Virus record (IMG/VR): IMGVR_UViG_3300034102_001457
Location: 1-64,000 of that record
Strand: one strand, 5' to 3'
Source: a virus
DNA length: 64,000 bases
The notes beneath the pieces are model-generated. The model did no database searches. It was not told where the DNA came from and worked only from the letters and a program-made list of their open reading frames with translations. Shown here piece by piece: positions 76 through 8,750 of this stretch. How positions within the stretch are numbered: the stretch's first letter is position 1; each line of letters begins with the position of its first letter. The position numbers were made by a program, and so were the translations under genes.

Positions 76-97
76 AGTATAGCAGGGGGGTCTGACA
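76..97 (-). promoter_or_regulatory. PafBC/RecA-NDp-type promoter P1
   Basis: Minus strand reads TGTCAG-acccccctgc-TATACT. Confidence 0.75.
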
Positions 98-179
98 TTT
101 CCACCCGAAGGTGGAGAGTTCTTACTTACGACATTGGACTAGAACACTCTCTAAACTGTCCCTGTTTCGTTATGCTTAT

Positions 180-338
180 TTAGTTAGCAGTTGCGCTTGT
201 CCAGCGTTCCTTGCCTTCTACATCAAGCAGAATACGATTTACTCCGCTAGGGTGGTTATCAACGGCTTTGATAACTCCTGTGATACCGCTTGTTGTTGTT
301 GTGTAGGTTTGACCTACTTCTAGTGTTGCGTTTGTCAT
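180..338 (-). CDS. Hypothetical 52-aa protein (MTNATLEVGQTY...)
   Basis: Translated by hand; AACGAAAGG RBS and promoter P2 upstream. Confidence 0.7.
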   Translation of the reverse strand: MTNATLEVGQTYTTTTSGITGVIKAVDNHPSGVNRILLDVEGKERWTSATAN

Positions 339-367
339 TTGTTTCCTTTCGTTTGGTTGGTAGTAGT

Positions 368-389
368 ATTATAGCGGATACCACCGACA
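368..389 (-). promoter_or_regulatory. PafBC/RecA-NDp-type promoter P2
   Basis: TGTCGG-tggtatccgc-TATAAT. Confidence 0.8.
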
Positions 390-417
390 TTTCCCCCCAT
401 TTCTAGGGGGAGTGTCG

Positions 418-433
418 TGTGATACTAGTCACA
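418..433. promoter_or_regulatory. CRP/GlxR-type site
   Basis: TGTGA-tactag-TCACA, perfect consensus. Confidence 0.75.
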
Positions 434-694
434 CTCAGGTAGCCAAAATCCTAAGTGGTGTTGGTCAATAATAGCGGAGGCAGGTGCTGTATCTAATCCT
501 TTATAAGATACGCCTTCAGGCATCTTTATCTGTCGATCAAAATCCTCATCATAGTATGCGTCAATAGCATCTATGCAAGGTTGCACCATAGAAAGTGGAA
601 CGGGTGGGTAATGATTACCCTGTAAGTGATAGGCTAATTGTGTTTCTAAATCTAACACGCTATCCTGAATACCTAGTGCAGTTATGCTTCCCAT
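425..694 (-). CDS. Hypothetical phage protein (HLQGNHYPPVP motif)
   Basis: ORF track; GAAGGT RBS; same strand as neighbours. Confidence 0.75.
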   Translation of the reverse strand: MGSITALGIQDSVLDLETQLAYHLQGNHYPPVPLSMVQPCIDAIDAYYDEDFDRQIKMPEGVSYKGLDTAPASAIIDQHHLGFWLPECD

Positions 695-696
695 TG

Positions 697-921
697 TTAG
701 TTACCTTCCTTGATAGTCATTTCAGCCCAAGTGTTAAACTCATTAGCAGTTTTTAATACATTAGATTGAGCAAGGGCGTGTAGCGTTGCTTCCTTGCACA
801 TCTCTGTCATTGTTTTTTCATCAAGAGCAATTAAGCGTGGCAATAAGTTTGCAGGGATAGTATCAAGGTTAATGATAGCCTCGAAAGTTATTGTGTGTGG
901 AACTTTGATTAGATTAGACAT
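697..921 (-). CDS. Hypothetical protein
   Basis: ORF with GAAAGG RBS downstream of P3. Confidence 0.7.
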   Translation of the reverse strand: MSNLIKVPHTITFEAIINLDTIPANLLPRLIALDEKTMTEMCKEATLHALAQSNVLKTANEFNTWAEMTIKEGN

Positions 922-950
922 TTGTTACCTTTCGTTGTTGGAATAAGAGT

Positions 951-972
951 ATTTTAGCATACCCCACTGACA
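951..972 (-). promoter_or_regulatory. PafBC/RecA-NDp-type promoter P3
   Basis: TGTCAG-tggggtatgc-TAAAAT. Confidence 0.8.
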
Positions 973-1000
973 TTACCTAATCTATTCCCCGCATAAGCCT

Positions 1001-1016
1001 TGTGATAAATCTCACA
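1001..1016. promoter_or_regulatory. CRP/GlxR-type site
   Basis: TGTGA-taaatc-TCACA. Confidence 0.75.
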
Positions 1017-1029
1017 AATTTCCAGGGTT

Positions 1030-1059
1030 TGTGGATAACTCCCGTAAACCTGTGGATAA
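1030..1059 (-). promoter_or_regulatory. Two tandem DnaA boxes
   Basis: TGTGGATAA (reverse complement TTATCCACA) at 1030-1038 and 1051-1059. Confidence 0.7.
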
Positions 1060-1080
1060 CCCCGTAGTATTGCGGGCCTT

Positions 1081-1203
1081 TTATTCCTCCTGGCCCCATA
1101 TGTCGGGATCTATTTCTGCTAAGTACTCTTTAGCAGCTTTTTTCTGATCTTGATCACCAACAACAGAATTTATTAATGCATTAAAATAATTAAGCTCCGC
1201 CAT
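1081..1203 (-). CDS. Hypothetical 40-aa protein (MAELNYFNAL...)
   Basis: Translated by hand; AAGGAG RBS. Confidence 0.6.
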   Translation of the reverse strand: MAELNYFNALINSVVGDQDQKKAAKEYLAEIDPDIWGQEE

Positions 1204-1215
1204 TTTTATTTCTCC

Positions 1216-1935
1216 TTATTTTTTAGTTGCGCTAAATCTAATATCTGCTTTACCATAAACACATAACCCACACGATACACACGCAGAACCTGCATTGCTA
1301 ATTAGTGGAATTGATTTCATATTTTCAGGGCACTTAGCACCAGGCTTGCCCGTCAATTCTTTCATTGTGCTTTCGGTGACGGCGAATGTCTTCCCTAAAT
1401 ATGCAAGGCGAATTCCCTCATTTACTTTTAGTTCGTGGCCGATTTCTTTATTCTCATCGTCGGTAGAATAGTAAAGAGATAAATTAGATACATCCTTTAG
1501 AATAAGCGCTGCAGACTTTACACGTGTGTAAACCCAGAATTGAACATCGGTGTGCTCATTGATTACATTCTTCCAGGCATAAGTATAGAAATCATTGAAG
1601 AAATCTCCGTCCCAGTGGATACGGAATAGCATAGGAGCGTCTTTCTTTACACAATCAGCCTTGAAATCAATAATCATTTCATTTAGCAATTGATACATTG
1701 TTTCCATATCGGCATTGCGTAGCAATTCCCAATTGTGTAGCAGATTAGTTTTTACTCCCTTGAAGAGTTTTTCCAATTTGCCTGCATAGCAAACAGTCTC
1801 GCAGATAGACGTAGCGCCAGGACATGAGAAATCTTTTCCTGCGGGTAATCCGAACGTGTTAGCAATTGCGGCTTGCTTTCCATTTTTTGTGACAAGGTTA
1901 GCCACCTTTCTATCATTAGAGCGTTTCAATTTCAT
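1216..1935 (-). CDS. GP88-like Cys-rich (radical-SAM-like) protein
   Basis: CPGATSICETVCYA, RIHWDGDF, WVYTR and C-terminal CxxCxxC motifs; start moved to 1935 on the basis of the RBS and P4. Confidence 0.75.
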   Translation of the reverse strand: MKLKRSNDRKVANLVTKNGKQAAIANTFGLPAGKDFSCPGATSICETVCYAGKLEKLFKGVKTNLLHNWELLRNADMETMYQLLNEMIIDFKADCVKKDAPMLFRIHWDGDFFNDFYTYAWKNVINEHTDVQFWVYTRVKSAALILKDVSNLSLYYSTDDENKEIGHELKVNEGIRLAYLGKTFAVTESTMKELTGKPGAKCPENMKSIPLISNAGSACVSCGLCVYGKADIRFSATKK

Positions 1936-1963
1936 TAGTTGGCCTTTCGTTGGTAAGGTTGTA

Positions 1964-1985
1964 AGTATAGCAGAATGGACCGACA
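1964..1985 (-). promoter_or_regulatory. PafBC/RecA-NDp-type promoter P4
   Basis: TGTCGG-tccattctgc-TATACT. Confidence 0.8.
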
Positions 1986-2012
1986 TTTTACGCAACACGC
2001 TGCAAATTCCAG

Positions 2013-2028
2013 GGTGTTTTAGATCACA
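2013..2028. promoter_or_regulatory. Degenerate CRP-type site
   Basis: GGTGT-tttaga-TCACA keeps the GTG-N8-CAC core and lies at the conserved distance from P4. Confidence 0.5.
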
Positions 2029-2055
2029 GTCGTAACGACACGCCCGACTCCGCAG
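2029..2055. repeat. 27-bp exact repeat, copy 1 (copy 2 at 3485-3511)
   Basis: GTCGTAACGACACGCCCGACTCCGCAG. Confidence 0.9.
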
Positions 2056-2067
2056 CTCTGCGGGCTT

Positions 2068-2083
2068 TCGAACACCTGTTCTA
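2068..2083. promoter_or_regulatory. Actinobacterial LexA (SOS) box
   Basis: TCGAAC-acct-GTTCTA, one mismatch from TCGAAC-N4-GTTCGA. Confidence 0.6.
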
Positions 2084-2088
2084 ATTAA

Positions 2089-2220
2089 TTATTGATCGAA
2101 TTTATTTTTATGTTTTATTTTGCGTGTGTATTTTTTTTTATTGCGAACAGGTTGCGCCGCATTACTGCGACGCAATTCCTGAATGCGTTTTACTTTATCT
2201 TGAAGAGAAGTTAGGAACAT
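2089..2220 (-). CDS. 43-aa highly basic protein (ELRRSNAAQPVRNKKKYTRKIKHK)
   Basis: Translated by hand; overlaps the end of the upstream gene. Confidence 0.6.
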   Translation of the reverse strand: MFLTSLQDKVKRIQELRRSNAAQPVRNKKKYTRKIKHKNKFDQ

Positions 2221-2386
2221 TATACCCACTCGCTTCGTGAAATCGTTTTACATCAAATCGCTCATTATCTTTCGCAAACATTTCAGCGAAATCATTTACA
2301 ATTTTAGAAAATACAGCAGGGTGAGTTTTGTTGCTAGCATACTTTAGAATTTCTGCGGTTGCTATGTAGTCTTTTCTAGTCATCAT
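2195..2386 (-). CDS. Hypothetical protein (MMTRKDY...DNERFDVKRF)
   Basis: ORF track; start trimmed to the ATG overlapping the upstream stop. Confidence 0.7.
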   Translation of the reverse strand: MMTRKDYIATAEILKYASNKTHPAVFSKIVNDFAEMFAKDNERFDVKRFHEASGYNVPNFSSR

Positions 2387-2586
2387 TTTACTACGACCTC
2401 TCCTGTGCGATAAAATAGTTTTGTATAGCATTTGCCAGTTGGTGTAAATAAATTTACAGTTGAGTATTCATTAGCAGAACCCCAATCGGTAAAACGGAAA
2501 AAGTTTTCCCACGCACCAAATTCATTTTCGTATTCGGCAGACCAGTGGGGGGCGTTGCTATCATAGGCGCAAGTTAGTTTATACAT
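2383..2586 (-). CDS. Hypothetical protein
   Basis: ORF with GAAAGG RBS, downstream of P5. Confidence 0.7.
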   Translation of the reverse strand: MYKLTCAYDSNAPHWSAEYENEFGAWENFFRFTDWGSANEYSTVNLFTPTGKCYTKLFYRTGEVVVK

Positions 2587-2630
2587 TAGTTTCCCTTTCG
2601 TTAGTTATACATTTACATTGTGTTATTACT

Positions 2631-2652
2631 ATTGTATCAGTTGCCACCGACA
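2631..2652 (-). promoter_or_regulatory. PafBC/RecA-NDp-type promoter P5
   Basis: TGTCGG-tggcaactga-TACAAT. Confidence 0.75.
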
Positions 2653-2704
2653 CAATAGCGAGAGTATCGCAATTATCGCAAATCCACATTTCAGCAATTT
2701 TCAT

Positions 2705-2851
2705 TTATTTATTCTCCTGAAAAAAACTGAGCGGATTACATTGGCAAGCCTCTACATCATAATTATTTTCATCTCCGTAGTATAGCCAGCCATTTCCGTA
2801 GCAGGTATCACACTCTAAAATCTGAGTGTATAATTCTTTCATTCTACCCAT
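2705..2851 (-). CDS. 48-aa Zn-finger-like protein (CDTCYG...CQC)
   Basis: Translated by hand; GAAAGG RBS; downstream of P6. Confidence 0.65.
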   Translation of the reverse strand: MGRMKELYTQILECDTCYGNGWLYYGDENNYDVEACQCNPLSFFQENK

Positions 2852-2883
2852 TTAGGTTTTCCCTTTCGTTTGTTGATTTTGTA

Positions 2884-2905
2884 ATTGTAGCAGATAGCAC
2901 TGACA
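2884..2905 (-). promoter_or_regulatory. PafBC/RecA-NDp-type promoter P6
   Basis: TGTCAG-tgctatctgc-TACAAT. Confidence 0.75.
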
Positions 2906-2965
2906 AGGCTTGCGCCTTGCTTGCCTCACGTTGTGCGATAACGTGTTGTTTGAATTCGTCTAAGT

Positions 2966-3091
2966 TCATTCGAACGCACCTTCCTCTAATAATCCTAATT
3001 CGATGTTGAATAATTCATCGGGTGTTGCTTCGGATAAATCTACCCAGCCAGCACCCTCGTTGTCCATTCGGAAAATTTCGATGTATCCCAT
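2966..3091 (-). CDS. 41-aa acidic protein (MGYIEIFRMDNEGAGWVD...)
   Basis: Translated by hand; tightly packed with neighbours. Confidence 0.6.
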   Translation of the reverse strand: MGYIEIFRMDNEGAGWVDLSEATPDELFNIELGLLEEGAFE

Positions 3092-3093
3092 TA

Positions 3094-3300
3094 TTATTCA
3101 CCAACCTTTACTGCGATTGTTGCGAATTTATTTCGCAGACCGCCCGCATTTATTTCGATTAGATACGCTTCAGTTTTTTCACCATACCAAATTTCTGGGC
3201 GGTGTTCGGCAGATACAATTTCGCCAGAAAAGTGGCGATTGCGTGAGCGATAGTTTTTCCCTACAAGTAGGCTTTCGATTGTGTATAGTTTGGTAGCCAT
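3094..3300 (-). CDS. Hypothetical protein
   Basis: ORF track; RBS; downstream of P7. Confidence 0.7.
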   Translation of the reverse strand: MATKLYTIESLLVGKNYRSRNRHFSGEIVSAEHRPEIWYGEKTEAYLIEINAGGLRNKFATIAVKVGE

Positions 3301-3335
3301 TGGCAGACCTTCTTTCGTTTGTTGTTATGTATGGA

Positions 3336-3357
3336 ATTATACACGAACCCACTGACA
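3336..3357 (-). promoter_or_regulatory. PafBC/RecA-NDp-type promoter P7
   Basis: TGTCAG-tgggttcgtg-TATAAT. Confidence 0.8.
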
Positions 3358-3405
3358 TTTTCACATTACTAGCCAGTAAATCCAAATAGTGAGACGCTCA
3401 AGCCG

Positions 3406-3421
3406 TGTGATACTAATCACA
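3406..3421. promoter_or_regulatory. CRP/GlxR-type site
   Basis: TGTGA-tactaa-TCACA. Confidence 0.75.
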
Positions 3422-3484
3422 TCAAAATGTCCGATTTGTCTGTCAAATCGACACGCCGTAGAATTCAGGGATTTTTATAACAAT

Positions 3485-3511
3485 GTCGTAACGACACGCC
3501 CGACTCCGCAG
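3485..3511. repeat. 27-bp exact repeat, copy 2
   Basis: Identical to 2029-2055. Confidence 0.9.
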
Positions 3512-3559
3512 TAGTTGCGGGCCAGCTTGATTTTGTCAAGCCGACACGCCGTTATTTAT

Positions 3560-3757
3560 TTATTCATTTTCTAATTCCGCTAAATAATCTTCGTGTTCTA
3601 CTAAACCAATCGCAAACGCAACGGGATCGCAACACTCTAAGATTTCGGCGGGTGTAAAAGTTGAGTAACCAATTTTTACAGTTGGATAAATGTCATTTAG
3701 TAAATCTATAAAACTTTCTTTGATTTCTAAATCTTTTTCTAATTGTGATTTACTCAT
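3560..3757 (-). CDS. Hypothetical acidic protein
   Basis: ORF track. Confidence 0.7.
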   Translation of the reverse strand: MSKSQLEKDLEIKESFIDLLNDIYPTVKIGYSTFTPAEILECCDPVAFAIGLVEHEDYLAELENE

Positions 3758-4337
3758 TTAGTCCCCCATTTTTTATGTCTTTGATTACTGCGATTAGTAG
3801 CGGGATAGTTACGCCCGCTAGTAGTAATTGGACGGCGGTAGTTAGTAAGCGATTAGTAGTCATTACTTATTCTTCTTTCTCTTGTAAATCTTATAGGCGA
3901 TTAGTAGGGCGGTAGTAATTAGGATAGTGTGCCAAGGTAAGTAGATAGCCCCTAAGAAACTATCAAACTCTAATCCGTAGTCGCTAGTTATGTATAACTC
4001 AAATCCGTTTATAGTCATTATTAGTTATCCCAATCTAATGTTAGTGCGGACATTTCTTCTTCTTCGTATTCGCTAAGGCGCAAATCTAAGCCCTCTGCTA
4101 GTGCCTTGTTATAGGCTTCTTCTTCTTCTAGATAGACATAAGCGTCTGCTACATCTGCCTGAATAGTATCCCATTTAGTCATCATTACTTTACCTCTACT
4201 TCTCTAATGTTGTAAGTGAAACCCTTACCTAGTTTTTCTAATTCTTTTATTACGGCTAAGATTTCTTCGGGCTTGTTAGCCTTTTGATTTACGGCTAATA
4301 GTTGAGAGCCTTGCCATAGTGTATAAGTGATAGTCAT
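3750..4337 (-). CDS. Four tiny coupled ORFs (4337-4185, 4185-4021, 4018-3863, 3863-3750); the last two are membrane peptides
   Basis: Translated by hand; stop/start junctions overlap or abut; downstream of P8. Confidence 0.55.
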
Positions 4338-4372
4338 TATCTGTTCTTCTTTCGTTAGTAGTTATAGTAGGA

Positions 4373-4394
4373 ATTGTAGCGCATAGCGCCGACA
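4373..4394 (-). promoter_or_regulatory. PafBC/RecA-NDp-type promoter P8
   Basis: TGTCGG-cgctatgcgc-TACAAT. Confidence 0.8.
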
Positions 4395-4423
4395 TTGTAT
4401 AGCGACACGCCGTTAGGCGTTAG

Positions 4424-4439
4424 TGTGATTATGGTCACA
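4424..4439. promoter_or_regulatory. CRP/GlxR-type site
   Basis: TGTGA-ttatgg-TCACA. Confidence 0.75.
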
Positions 4440-4521
4440 CACGGACTCGATTTCGTGTCCGAACTCCTCTACGAGTTCCTCGTAGATTTCGTCCATATAA
4501 TCAAGATAATCGTTCATTAGA

Positions 4522-4728
4522 TTACTCCCAACTTCTAGTAGTAGCATAAACCTTGCGAGTGCTAGGCTTGTAATTTTCTAACTCTCTTAGATTAGTTTCT
4601 AAGATAGTGCCTCTTAGGGCTAGTAGGTCAAGATACTCATTAGCATCTTGTTCGGTATTCATTAGAACACCTAAGCAAGTAGAAAACTCGGTGTCCGAGT
4701 ATTGGACTTTATAACTTAGTGAAAACAT
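4522..4728 (-). CDS. Hypothetical protein
   Basis: ORF track; GAAGGA RBS; downstream of P9. Confidence 0.7.
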   Translation of the reverse strand: MFSLSYKVQYSDTEFSTCLGVLMNTEQDANEYLDLLALRGTILETNLRELENYKPSTRKVYATTRSWE

Positions 4729-4779
4729 TTTGTTTTCCTTTCTTTATCAAGAACCTTTCTTGATTTTCTTTATAGTATA

Positions 4780-4801
4780 ACTCTAGCAGGGGGGACTGAC
4801 A
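4780..4801 (-). promoter_or_regulatory. PafBC/RecA-NDp-type promoter P9
   Basis: TGTCAG-tcccccctgc-TAGAGT. Confidence 0.7.
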
Positions 4802-4839: not shown

Positions 4840-4855
4840 TGTGATTAGCATCACA
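4840..4855. promoter_or_regulatory. CRP/GlxR-type site
   Basis: TGTGA-ttagca-TCACA. Confidence 0.75.
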
Positions 4856-4967: not shown

Positions 4968-5318
4968 CTAGTCGACTGAGATTTTATTCCTAAGTTTTTT
5001 TCTATACGAAGTATCGACGGGTGCATACCTAGGATGTTTCTTTGGCTCATTTGTTCTATTACCTTTAGTAAGGTTGCAGATACCGTGAGAAGGCTTTACG
5101 TTTATAAGCTCGTCAGATCCTCCTTTGGTTAAAGGGATTACATGATCTAGCTGTAGTCCATACTTCCATCCAGGTACAAAAGCTTGGCGGGGTGCAGAGT
5201 AATCTATCTGCATACCACATATGTGACAATTACCCCCATGTATAATAAAAATTTCATAGAAGGAGTATAGGTGTGGATCCGTATATCTCTCTATGTTTGC
5301 TTTATTGTTTACTGGCAT
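4968..5318 (-). CDS. HNH endonuclease
   Basis: CHICG...LDHVIPLTKGG...N...HGICNLTKG. Confidence 0.9.
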   Translation of the reverse strand: MPVNNKANIERYTDPHLYSFYEIFIIHGGNCHICGMQIDYSAPRQAFVPGWKYGLQLDHVIPLTKGGSDELINVKPSHGICNLTKGNRTNEPKKHPRYAPVDTSYRKKLRNKISVD

Positions 5319-5393
5319 AACAAAATATTATCAAATAAAAAAAGTTTCGTCAACCCCTTGACCTTAGAATATTTCAAATGTTATACTTCCATA

Positions 5394-5487
5394 GGGGGGT
5401 CGGGGGGTCAGAAAATACAGAAAATACAAAAAATACAAAATATAAAACATATAACATATAACATATATAACATATATAACATATATA
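5394..5487 (+). repeat. G-runs followed by degenerate ~9-bp AT-rich tandem repeats
   Basis: GGGGGGTC x2, then CAGAAAATA/CAAAAAATA/ACATATATA units. Confidence 0.85.
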
Positions 5488-5488
5488 G

Positions 5489-5517
5489 TTGACTAGAATG
5501 TATAGATAGTATATAAT
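5489..5517 (+). promoter_or_regulatory. Sigma70/SigA-type promoter
   Basis: TTGACT-17bp-TATAAT; ATG 6 nt after the -10 (leaderless). Confidence 0.8.
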
Positions 5518-5523
5518 AAATTA

Positions 5524-5631
5524 ATGGCATCGTCAAGATTAGTAAAATGTGATAAATGTGGGCGGGAGATTGAAGTAAGATCTGGGTTTGCACATATGAC
5601 ACTTAATAATCATCAGAAAAGCTGTAAATAA
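5524..5631 (+). CDS. 35-aa C2HC zinc-finger peptide
   Basis: CDKC...HQKSC; leaderless start. Confidence 0.6.
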   Translation: MASSRLVKCDKCGREIEVRSGFAHMTLNNHQKSCK

Positions 5632-7800: not shown

Positions 7801-7882
7801 GATATAAAAAAGCGGGATAGGCTAAGAAGCATTCTTTGCTACAATTAAGCCATAATGATCTATATCTCAGGCATTATCTAGC

Positions 7883-8423: not shown

Positions 8424-8496
8424 TGGACCATAGCTCAGTTGGCAGAGCGGGAAGCTGTTAACTTCTAGGTCCCTGGTTCGAGTCCAGGTGGTCCAG
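8424..8496 (+). tRNA. tRNA-Asn(GTT)
   Basis: TGGACCA/TGGTCCA acceptor stem; GGAAG-CTGTTAA-CTTCT anticodon arm; TTCGAGT T-loop. Confidence 0.95.
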
Positions 8497-8500
8497 CGAT

Positions 8501-8574
8501 GCGAGTGTTACATAATGGTAGTGTCTCTGCCTTCCAAGCAGATAGTGCCAGTTCGATTCTGGTCACTCGCTCCA
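8501..8574 (+). tRNA. tRNA-Gly(TCC)
   Basis: GCGAGTG/CACTCGC acceptor stem; TCTGC-CTTCCAA-GCAGA; encoded CCA. Confidence 0.95.
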
Positions 8575-8575
8575 T

Positions 8576-8647
8576 ATCTCTATAGCTCAGCGGAAGAGCA
8601 ACAGGTTTCTACCCTGTGTGTCGGGAGTTCGAATCTCTCTAGGGATA
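8576..8647 (+). tRNA. tRNA-Arg(TCT)
   Basis: ATCTCTA/TAGGGAT acceptor stem; ACAGG-TTTCTAC-CCTGT; GGA in the D-loop (A20). Confidence 0.9.
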
Positions 8648-8650
8648 CAA

Positions 8651-8750
8651 AGAAAAAACCCCAATCAGAGGCGGATCCGATTGGGGTTTTCTAGTGTATT
8701 GCTACACGTTATACTGGGAGCTTAATCTGTGGGATGCTACAACCAGTACT
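8651..8750 (-). ncRNA. Candidate ~100-nt structured sRNA
   Basis: Own promoter TTGACA-17-TATACT (8756-8784); no ORF; internal stems; ends in a U-tailed hairpin. Confidence 0.55.
8655..8690. terminator. Bidirectional intrinsic terminator
   Basis: AAAACCCCAATC ... GATTGGGGTTTT. Confidence 0.8.

Follow-up and report, generated by a model that had tools for sequence, protein, structure and literature searches.

An array of candidate PafBC-type promoters in the small-gene module of a lake actinophage

Introduction

How does a phage direct transcription of a block of small genes whose promoters have no evident -35 hexamer, and does the host supply the factor that reads the conserved box found in its place? 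The question is raised by an IMG/VR viral contig, record IMGVR_UViG_3300034102_001457 (79,857 bp, 38.7% GC, CheckV completeness 63%), of which positions 1 to 64,000 form the stretch analysed here and referred to as the window. At one end of this window, nine copies of the element TGTCRG-N10-TAnnnT precede predicted genes on the minus strand. An earlier reading made from the letters of the DNA alone (the sequence-only reading) had taken these copies for promoters of the mycobacterial RecA-NDp class, and had proposed that the phage genes behind them are wired to the host DNA-damage activator PafBC.

PafBC-dependent promoters (RecA-NDp, recA P1-type) of Mycobacterium and other Actinobacteria are served by a mode of activation termed sigma adaptation (PMC8635444, PMC6789036, PMC11804915). 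The in vivo consensus, tGTCgg(N10)tA(N3)T, has no -35; the helix-turn-helix of PafB reads positions -23 to -28, and PafBC inserts between domain 4 of SigA and the DNA (PMC8635444). The activator is switched on by single-stranded DNA (ssDNA; PMC11804915). A 2025 paper, as cited in PMC12848934, ties PafBC to mycobacteriophage resistance. So far, PafBC and sigma adaptation have been described solely in the cellular response of actinobacteria to DNA damage, and our literature search found no paper that ties PafBC-type promoters to phage genes.

We lean towards reading the nine elements as candidate PafBC-type promoters that would be recognized by host SigA-RNA polymerase together with host PafBC. 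What is new is a known promoter class in a phage-wide context, with features of its own: an A at -24, an extended -10 (TGn), and co-oriented arrays.

Results and Discussion

Nine co-oriented elements with an invariant spacer

An exact search of the window for TGTCRG-N10-TAnnnT returns nine matches, all on the minus strand, at positions 76, 368, 951, 1964, 2631, 2884, 3336, 4373 and 4780. The rest of the 79,857-bp record holds no further exact match, and the same element is carried by related contigs. Dinucleotide shuffles of the window yield 1.06 +/- 0.85 matches, an enrichment of about ninefold, and no shuffle reached nine; for the module stretch and strand alone, the Poisson probability of at least nine matches is about 6e-19. 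The spacer is 10 bp in nine of nine copies, and relaxing it to 9-11 bp adds only two matches, both within coding sequence. Five of the nine copies have the form TGTCRGTG. The positions, the constant spacer and the five-copy count given by the sequence-only reading were all recovered by these searches.

That reading also saw no canonical -35 hexamer, and no TTG-type hexamer lies 16-19 bp before TAnnnT at any of the nine sites, with the qualification that the 4780 site permits an alternative parsing, TTGTCA-N17-TATACT. An extended -10 is present at six of the nine sites; the other three, at 368, 3336 and 4373, lack both TGn and a -35. From the end of the -10 hexamer to the ATG the distance is 28-51 nt, through leaders that are A/C-rich and G-poor. 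Eight of these leaders contain ACGAAAG, and the leader of the 4780 site carries AAGAAAGG in its place. A ribosome-binding site (RBS) of the GAAAG type and an ATG do follow every copy, as had been claimed, but the claim that a small gene always comes next fails at 1216-1935, which encodes 239 aa. Conservation between copies is limited to the box, the -10 and the RBS; the spacers and flanks vary.

Agreement with PafBC promoters and actinobacterial recA promoters

In sequence and in register the phage element equals the published PafBC consensus, with a GTC-containing box at -28 to -23 in nine of nine sites. A comparison set of recA promoters was collected from metagenome contigs in which the RecA FGKG..M codons come 63-123 nt after the box; at least 120 contigs were found. 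Among the matches listed, 79 unique high-GC recA promoters have A at 41-47% at -31/-30, W (A or T) at 82% at -22, S (G or C) at about 95% at -21/-20 and C at 75% at -19. The AT-rich phage sites, taken from a logo of 671 sites from related contigs, have A at 62-66% at -31 to -29, W at 90% at -22, S at 90% at -21/-20 and C at 48% at -19. Each set deviates from its own base composition, and both do so in the same direction. The sub-forms TGTCRG-TGG/TGC and TGTCRG-ACCC are common to both sets. The assignment of the motif to the mycobacterial RecA-NDp/PafBC type is thus borne out by sequence and spacing (PMC8635444) and by the flanks of the 79 recA promoters.

The likeness to PafBC-dependent promoters therefore covers the TGTCRG(TG) box at -28 to -23, the invariant 10-bp gap to TAnnnT, the missing -35, the A-rich upstream flank and the W-S-S downstream of the box. 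The phage sites differ in three respects. They form a co-oriented array before small orphan genes rather than standing before DNA-repair genes; they prefer A over G at -24 (84% family-wide); and most copies combine a near-consensus TATAAT with TGn, whereas the recA sites pair the same box and register with a weak -10 (TAGCGT), no TGn and no -35.

The phage and its presumed host

The best hits of the portal protein are Streptomyces phages of the Stanwilliamsviridae (BE cluster), at 55-60% identity. The gene at 1216-1935 belongs to the GP88 family (PF17338, phrog_1392), whose homologues are confined to phages of Mycobacterium and Streptomyces. WhiB is encoded in ten of ten complete relatives, one per genome, and is orthologous to the WhiB of Streptomyces phages; it falls in the section missing from the present contig. 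On the portal, the GP88-family gene and the presence of WhiB in all complete relatives, the phage is judged to be an actinophage, a low-GC lake relative of the Streptomyces Stanwilliamsviridae phages. Near-identical DNA is present in lake-water metagenomes from at least 14 studies, and lake metatranscriptome assemblies contain parts of the stretch, possibly as carried-over DNA. Freshwater Actinobacteria, above all 'Ca. Nanopelagicales' (about 42-47% GC), are the hosts given in the literature for whiB-bearing low-GC lake phages (PMC10202952; 10.1101/670067). The host is probably a freshwater actinobacterium such as one of the Nanopelagicales.

Do such bacteria use the same box? Seven low- to mid-GC contigs (44-53% GC) among the matches listed encode actinobacterial RecA N-termini. 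In the six host-like contigs that were printed, about 30-40 nt separate the TGTCRG box from the recA start downstream of it, and a LexA box, TCGAA(C/A)-N4-GTTCGA, lies 50-75 nt upstream of the TGTCRG box. A double-promoter layout of this kind, with a LexA box and a second promoter, is known for mycobacterial recA. One of these contigs (L235, 43.8% GC) has the gene order dapA-RNase J-ftsK-pgsA-cinA-HTH_3-recA-recX, and its RecA is identical to proteins of metagenome-assembled genomes (MAGs) labelled Actinobacteria/Actinomycetota, 92% identical to that of 'actinobacterium acAMD-5' and 85-87% identical to that of 'Ca. Nanopelagicales bacterium'. In 71 kb of host-like contigs the box occurs 14 times: 11 copies stand at recA, two stand before the recA-adjacent HTH_3 gene, and the remaining copy precedes a LysM gene that likewise has a LexA box, a layout that resembles mycobacterial chiZ. 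Since all 14 copies stand at these genes, the box appears to mark a small damage-type regulon in host-like bacteria and not a general promoter type. Low-GC actinobacteria near 'Ca. Nanopelagicales' thus have the phage's box at recA, downstream of a LexA box. The promoter of the LysM gene (L204:9806) also combines a TTGACA -35 with the box.

Spread of the arrangement among related phages

A search of IMG/VR with the promoter-plus-RBS pattern matched at least 118 stretches. Nearly all of the matches listed fall within 33-44% GC, with as many as 16 co-oriented copies in ~13 kb, and the reversed control pattern is nearly absent from the same stretches. Ten complete relatives (100-116 kb, five with terminal repeats) have about 4-19 co-oriented copies per genome, mostly in one module of 10-15 kb. 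The 671-site logo reads aaaTGTC(A84/G16)G-W-S-S-nnnn-(T)G-n-TAtAAT and has no -35 signal. When the relatives were aligned on an anchor independent of the box (extended -10 plus RBS), the box was found at exactly -28 to -23, with T92 G93 T93 C94 R94 G91 as percentages; G at -14 is present in 77% of sites family-wide. The portal proteins of these relatives range from 48% to 98% identity to that of the present phage, and the portal tree contains at least three deep lake lineages and the Streptomyces clade in an unresolved polytomy. The same promoter arrangement is found in at least three deep portal lineages.

The arrays do not extend to the cultured phages that we compared. In four cultured Streptomyces relatives and one cluster-A mycobacteriophage, box copies number 0-3, as many as the control pattern, so that there is no enrichment. 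The BE-cluster phages (BillNye, Genie2, LukeCage, Coruscant, Mandalore) share with the lake phage the portal, the WhiB orthologue, the GP88-family gene and the ~100-130 kb class, but they differ in GC content (~50% versus 39%), in source (soil versus lake water) and in having the box at control level.

Several members of the wider group stand out. In L101/L136 (lineage G024), L099 and L057 a TTGACA -35 is joined to the box as TTGACA-aa(aa)-TGTCRG, which creates the inverted repeat TGACA..TGTCA; G024 is apparently a larger phage, with a 3,461-aa open reading frame (ORF). A 17-kb IMG/VR contig (L059) has six co-oriented boxes in 4.5 kb at 50% GC, much above the rest of the group, which hints that phages of other actinobacterial hosts use the box too. 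A stringent promoter-plus-RBS scan of genome collections returned chance singletons together with phage contigs in cyanobacterial, Bacteroidia, Polynucleobacter and unclassified MAGs. The whole or partial phage genomes with arrays lie in MAGs of a cyanobacterium (L126/L137, contig 31), of Bacteroidia (L124/L134/L138) and of Polynucleobacter (L130), and WhiB is encoded on L126 and on the Bacteroidia-MAG phage contigs. The presence of such contigs in MAGs of unrelated phyla is likely binning contamination.

Phage-encoded factors and two promoter classes

A phage-encoded activator of the WYL type had been offered as an alternative to host PafBC. It found no backing, as no WYL domain (PF13280) is present in the record and none scores above cut-off in 35 related records, ten of them complete. 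The ten complete relatives likewise have no Sigma70_r2 or HTH_11 match above cut-off. AsiA (PF09010) has no match in the record or in four complete relatives, in a search in which the family matched no control genome either and which did not include MotA.

Middle and late genes had been assigned to ordinary promoters, giving a two-class split. Qualitatively the split stands. Intergenic extended -10 promoters, some with TTGAC(A/T), are found at 7837, 11145, 13469, 44220, 67735, 68961 and 77611, and the divergent intergenic region 5325-5536, which forms the module boundary, contains four good -35/-10 sites (minus strand 5353-5325 and 5536-5508; plus strand 5358-5387 and 5489-5517). TGTCRG at -28 to -23 is missing from all of these extended -10 and -35/-10 promoters. 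Matches to a sigma-70-like consensus number 68 against 64.6 expected, so there is no overall enrichment and the two-class claim rests on individual intergenic sites only. As the box is confined to the module and absent from the other promoters, it appears to be an extra input specific to the module.

A host-read module and its alternatives

In the mechanism we propose, the TGTCRG box at -28 to -23, the -26 element of this promoter class, would replace the -35 hexamer at a fixed 10 bp from a -10 of the housekeeping-sigma type. Host PafBC would dock on the box and adapt SigA-RNA polymerase to the module promoters. Activated by ssDNA arising in infection or in phage replication, it would then fire a module of small, mostly orphan genes, which comprises nine transcription units here. 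Because the phage appears to have neither a WYL protein nor a sigma factor of its own, docking of host PafBC is the most likely mechanism. We infer PafBC as the factor, ssDNA as the trigger and an early or host-takeover-like role for the module, 'early' resting only on gene content (small orphans and the GP88-family gene) and on the layout of one promoter per unit. That incoming or nicked phage DNA supplies the trigger is speculation. The TGn at six sites probably provides some PafBC-independent basal activity and makes for stronger promoters. The proposal that the phage genes are wired to host PafBC is therefore favored by the motif, the match to recA promoters, the actinophage affiliation and the lack of a phage WYL protein, and is weakened by the six TGn sites, which could run without PafBC.

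Other points also weigh against PafBC as the factor. An extended -10, as found at those six sites, can work with neither a -35 nor an activator. About 23% of family-wide sites have a TTG at the -35 spacing (77% do not), and lineage G024, with its larger genome, has a full TTGACA-aa-TGTCAG. The Streptomyces relatives show no box enrichment, although PafBC is described for their hosts in the literature. It would be strange for immediate-early genes to rely on an activator that itself needs to be activated beforehand. Finally, the recA comparison set was retrieved by requiring the box, so that its independent evidence is limited to the free positions and the context.

One alternative, which we consider unlikely, is that a phage specificity factor of no recognizable family reads the box and redirects host RNA polymerase, perhaps with the phage WhiB, the likeness to PafBC promoters being convergent. 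T4 offers the precedent, as its middle promoters consist of a box plus a -10 with no -35 (PMC8635444). WhiB, as noted, is encoded in every complete relative, the mostly orphan module genes could conceal a regulator, and the Streptomyces relatives have no arrays despite their PafBC-bearing hosts. Cellular WhiB homologues bind domain 4 of SigA. Convergence, however, would have to recreate the hexamer, the exact 10-bp spacing, and the W-S-S and A-rich flanks of the recA promoters. The complete relatives have no WYL, sigma or HTH_11 match, and the four searched for AsiA have none of that family (a search with no positive control). Moreover, Streptomyces phages without arrays encode the orthologous WhiB as well.

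Equally improbable in our view is a second alternative, in which the module has ordinary SigA promoters built on an extended -10 (TGnTAnnnT) and the box either serves as a spacer-located operator, bound by a repressor or shut-off factor, or belongs to a decoy array that draws in PafBC and blunts the host damage or defence response. The TGn frequencies, both at the nine sites and as G at -14 across the family, agree with this. Box-less extended -10 promoters evidently serve other genes of the same phage, some relatives pair a full TTGACA -35 with the box, and the 4-19 copies per relative genome would make a plausible sink. Three of the nine sites, however, have neither TGn nor a -35. The register of the box to the -10, fixed to one position in more than 90% of sites, is typical of a polymerase-coupled element and not of an operator, and the recA promoters combine the same box and register with a weak -10 and no -35, as would be expected of an activating element.

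That the copies have no promoter function and arose through duplication of intergenic DNA or by chance is very improbable: some intergenic modules, such as GGCGTGTCG and hairpins, are indeed repeated, but only the box, -10 and RBS are conserved between copies whose spacers and flanks differ, the chance probability is minute, the arrangement recurs in at least three deep portal lineages, and lake metatranscriptome assemblies hold parts of the stretch (though possibly as carried-over DNA).

Comparison with known phage systems

PafBC, as the factor we favor for the array, invites comparison with three ways in which other phages borrow host transcription. T4 middle promoters, with a MotA box at -30 plus a -10 and sigma appropriation by AsiA/MotA, likewise mark out a class of phage genes with a box that stands in for the -35 and keeps a constant spacing to a housekeeping -10. 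They differ in that no AsiA was detected here (in a search with no positive control, and with MotA not searched for). Because the box of the lake phage would be the host's own activator site, its adaptor is probably host-encoded, unlike that of T4.

Phage and prophage genes under host LexA include coliphage 186 tum, CTXphi and the Bacillus phage GIL01. These also tie phage gene expression to host DNA-damage sensing, but they do so by de-repression through LexA cleavage, at single control points and in temperate phages, whereas here an activator pathway is predicted for a whole multi-promoter module of a seemingly large, lytic-type phage. The host-takeover module of SPO1 has many small early genes with strong promoters of their own, of the plain sigma-A -35/-10 kind. 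Like the lake-phage module, it packs small genes closely together, gives each set of one to five genes a promoter and has hairpins between units; the SPO1 early promoters differ in having both -35 and -10.

If the array does depend on PafBC, it would be the first case of a WYL-domain activator driving a phage regulon. A host alarm that is also linked to phage resistance would then have become a phage switch, and silencing it would cost the host its repair. PafBC would gain an ecological role in highly abundant freshwater bacteria and their phages, and the hundreds of natural promoter variants would offer material for dissecting recognition of the -26 element.

Organization of the module

The present contig is cut inside the module, of which nine transcription units are retained, all on the minus strand. 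Promoter 1 (76..97; TGTCAG-N10-TATACT, with TGn) would drive a gene that starts at ATG 47 and runs off the contig end. Promoter 2 (368..389; TGTCGGTG...TATAAT, with neither TGn nor -35) precedes a 52-aa gene at 180-338, and promoter 3 (951..972; TGTCAGTG...TGCTAAAAT) precedes genes 697-921 and 425-694. The GP88-family gene (1216-1935) and 1081-1203 would be transcribed from promoter 4 (1964..1985; TGTCGGTC...TGCTATACT). Promoter 5 (2631..2652; TGTCGGTG...TGATACAAT), which would drive 2383-2586 and downstream genes, lies within the 3' end of the small ORF 2579-2704, and promoter 6 (2884..2905; TGTCAGTG...TGCTACAAT) lies within the 3' end of ORF 2844-2969, so that coding sequence and promoter overlap at both sites. 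The gene downstream of promoter 6, at 2705-2851, encodes a Cys-rich 48-aa product with a zinc-ribbon-like appearance. Genes 3094-3300 and 2966-3091 follow promoter 7 (3336..3357; TGTCAGTG...TATAAT, lacking TGn). Promoter 8 (4373..4394; TGTCGGCG...TACAAT, also lacking TGn) is predicted to serve five small genes between 4337 and 3560. Promoter 9 (4780..4801; TGTCAGTC...TGCTAGAGT), the site with the alternative TTGTCA-N17-TATACT parsing, precedes 4522-4728 and 4413-4547. An HNH endonuclease gene (4968..5318, minus strand) stands between the canonical promoters of the divergent region and the module. Besides this gene and the GP88-family gene, the small proteins of the stretch were assigned to no family.

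G+C-rich hairpins with no T-run immediately precede the A-rich tract and box at promoter 1 (hairpin at 98-117) and promoter 2 (hairpin at 395-412). They are probably terminators of the preceding units, which would insulate the units from each other.

Other sites within the module

Five perfect TGTGA-N6-TCACA palindromes, of the CRP/GlxR type, lie at 418-433, 1001-1016, 3406-3421, 4424-4439 and 4840-4855. All are inside the module and none is found elsewhere in the 79.9 kb; the expectation for the looser GTGA-N6-TCAC is 0.9. Relative to the predicted transcription starts, their centres fall at about -64.5 (promoter 2), -64.5 (promoter 3), -84.5 (promoter 7), -65.5 (promoter 8) and -74.5 (promoter 9), positions that place them on roughly one helical face.

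A second repeat, GGCGTGTCG, occurs five times on the minus strand in intergenic DNA of the module (2036-2044, 3449-3457, 3492-3500, 3542-3550 and 4403-4411), against about 0.7 expected for the 8-mer, and a short hairpin often follows it. The reverse complement of its core, GACACGCC, is kept just upstream of the recA LexA box in five of six host-like contigs (L235, L204, L193, L174 and L149), with a variant in the sixth (L223). The GACAC within GACACGCC is the WhiA core.

A broader picture, which we offer tentatively, is that an abundant lineage of lake actinophages hands a small-gene, probably host-takeover, module to host regulators. The ssDNA alarm of PafBC would sense phage entry or replication and fire the ~4-19 promoters, the helically phased CRP-type sites and the recA-upstream motif would add physiological inputs, and the array might, by titration, deplete PafBC at the repair and defence genes of the host.

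Two copies of TGTGGATAA, at 1030-1038 and 1051-1059 and thus 21 bp apart, lie in the intergenic DNA upstream of the promoter at 951 and are its sole copies in the window; on the minus strand they read as the DnaA R-box TTATCCACA. Farther along the window, three adjacent tRNA genes (Asn-GTT, Gly-TCC and Arg-TCT) occupy 8424-8648 and are followed by a strong terminator-like hairpin at 8653-8692.

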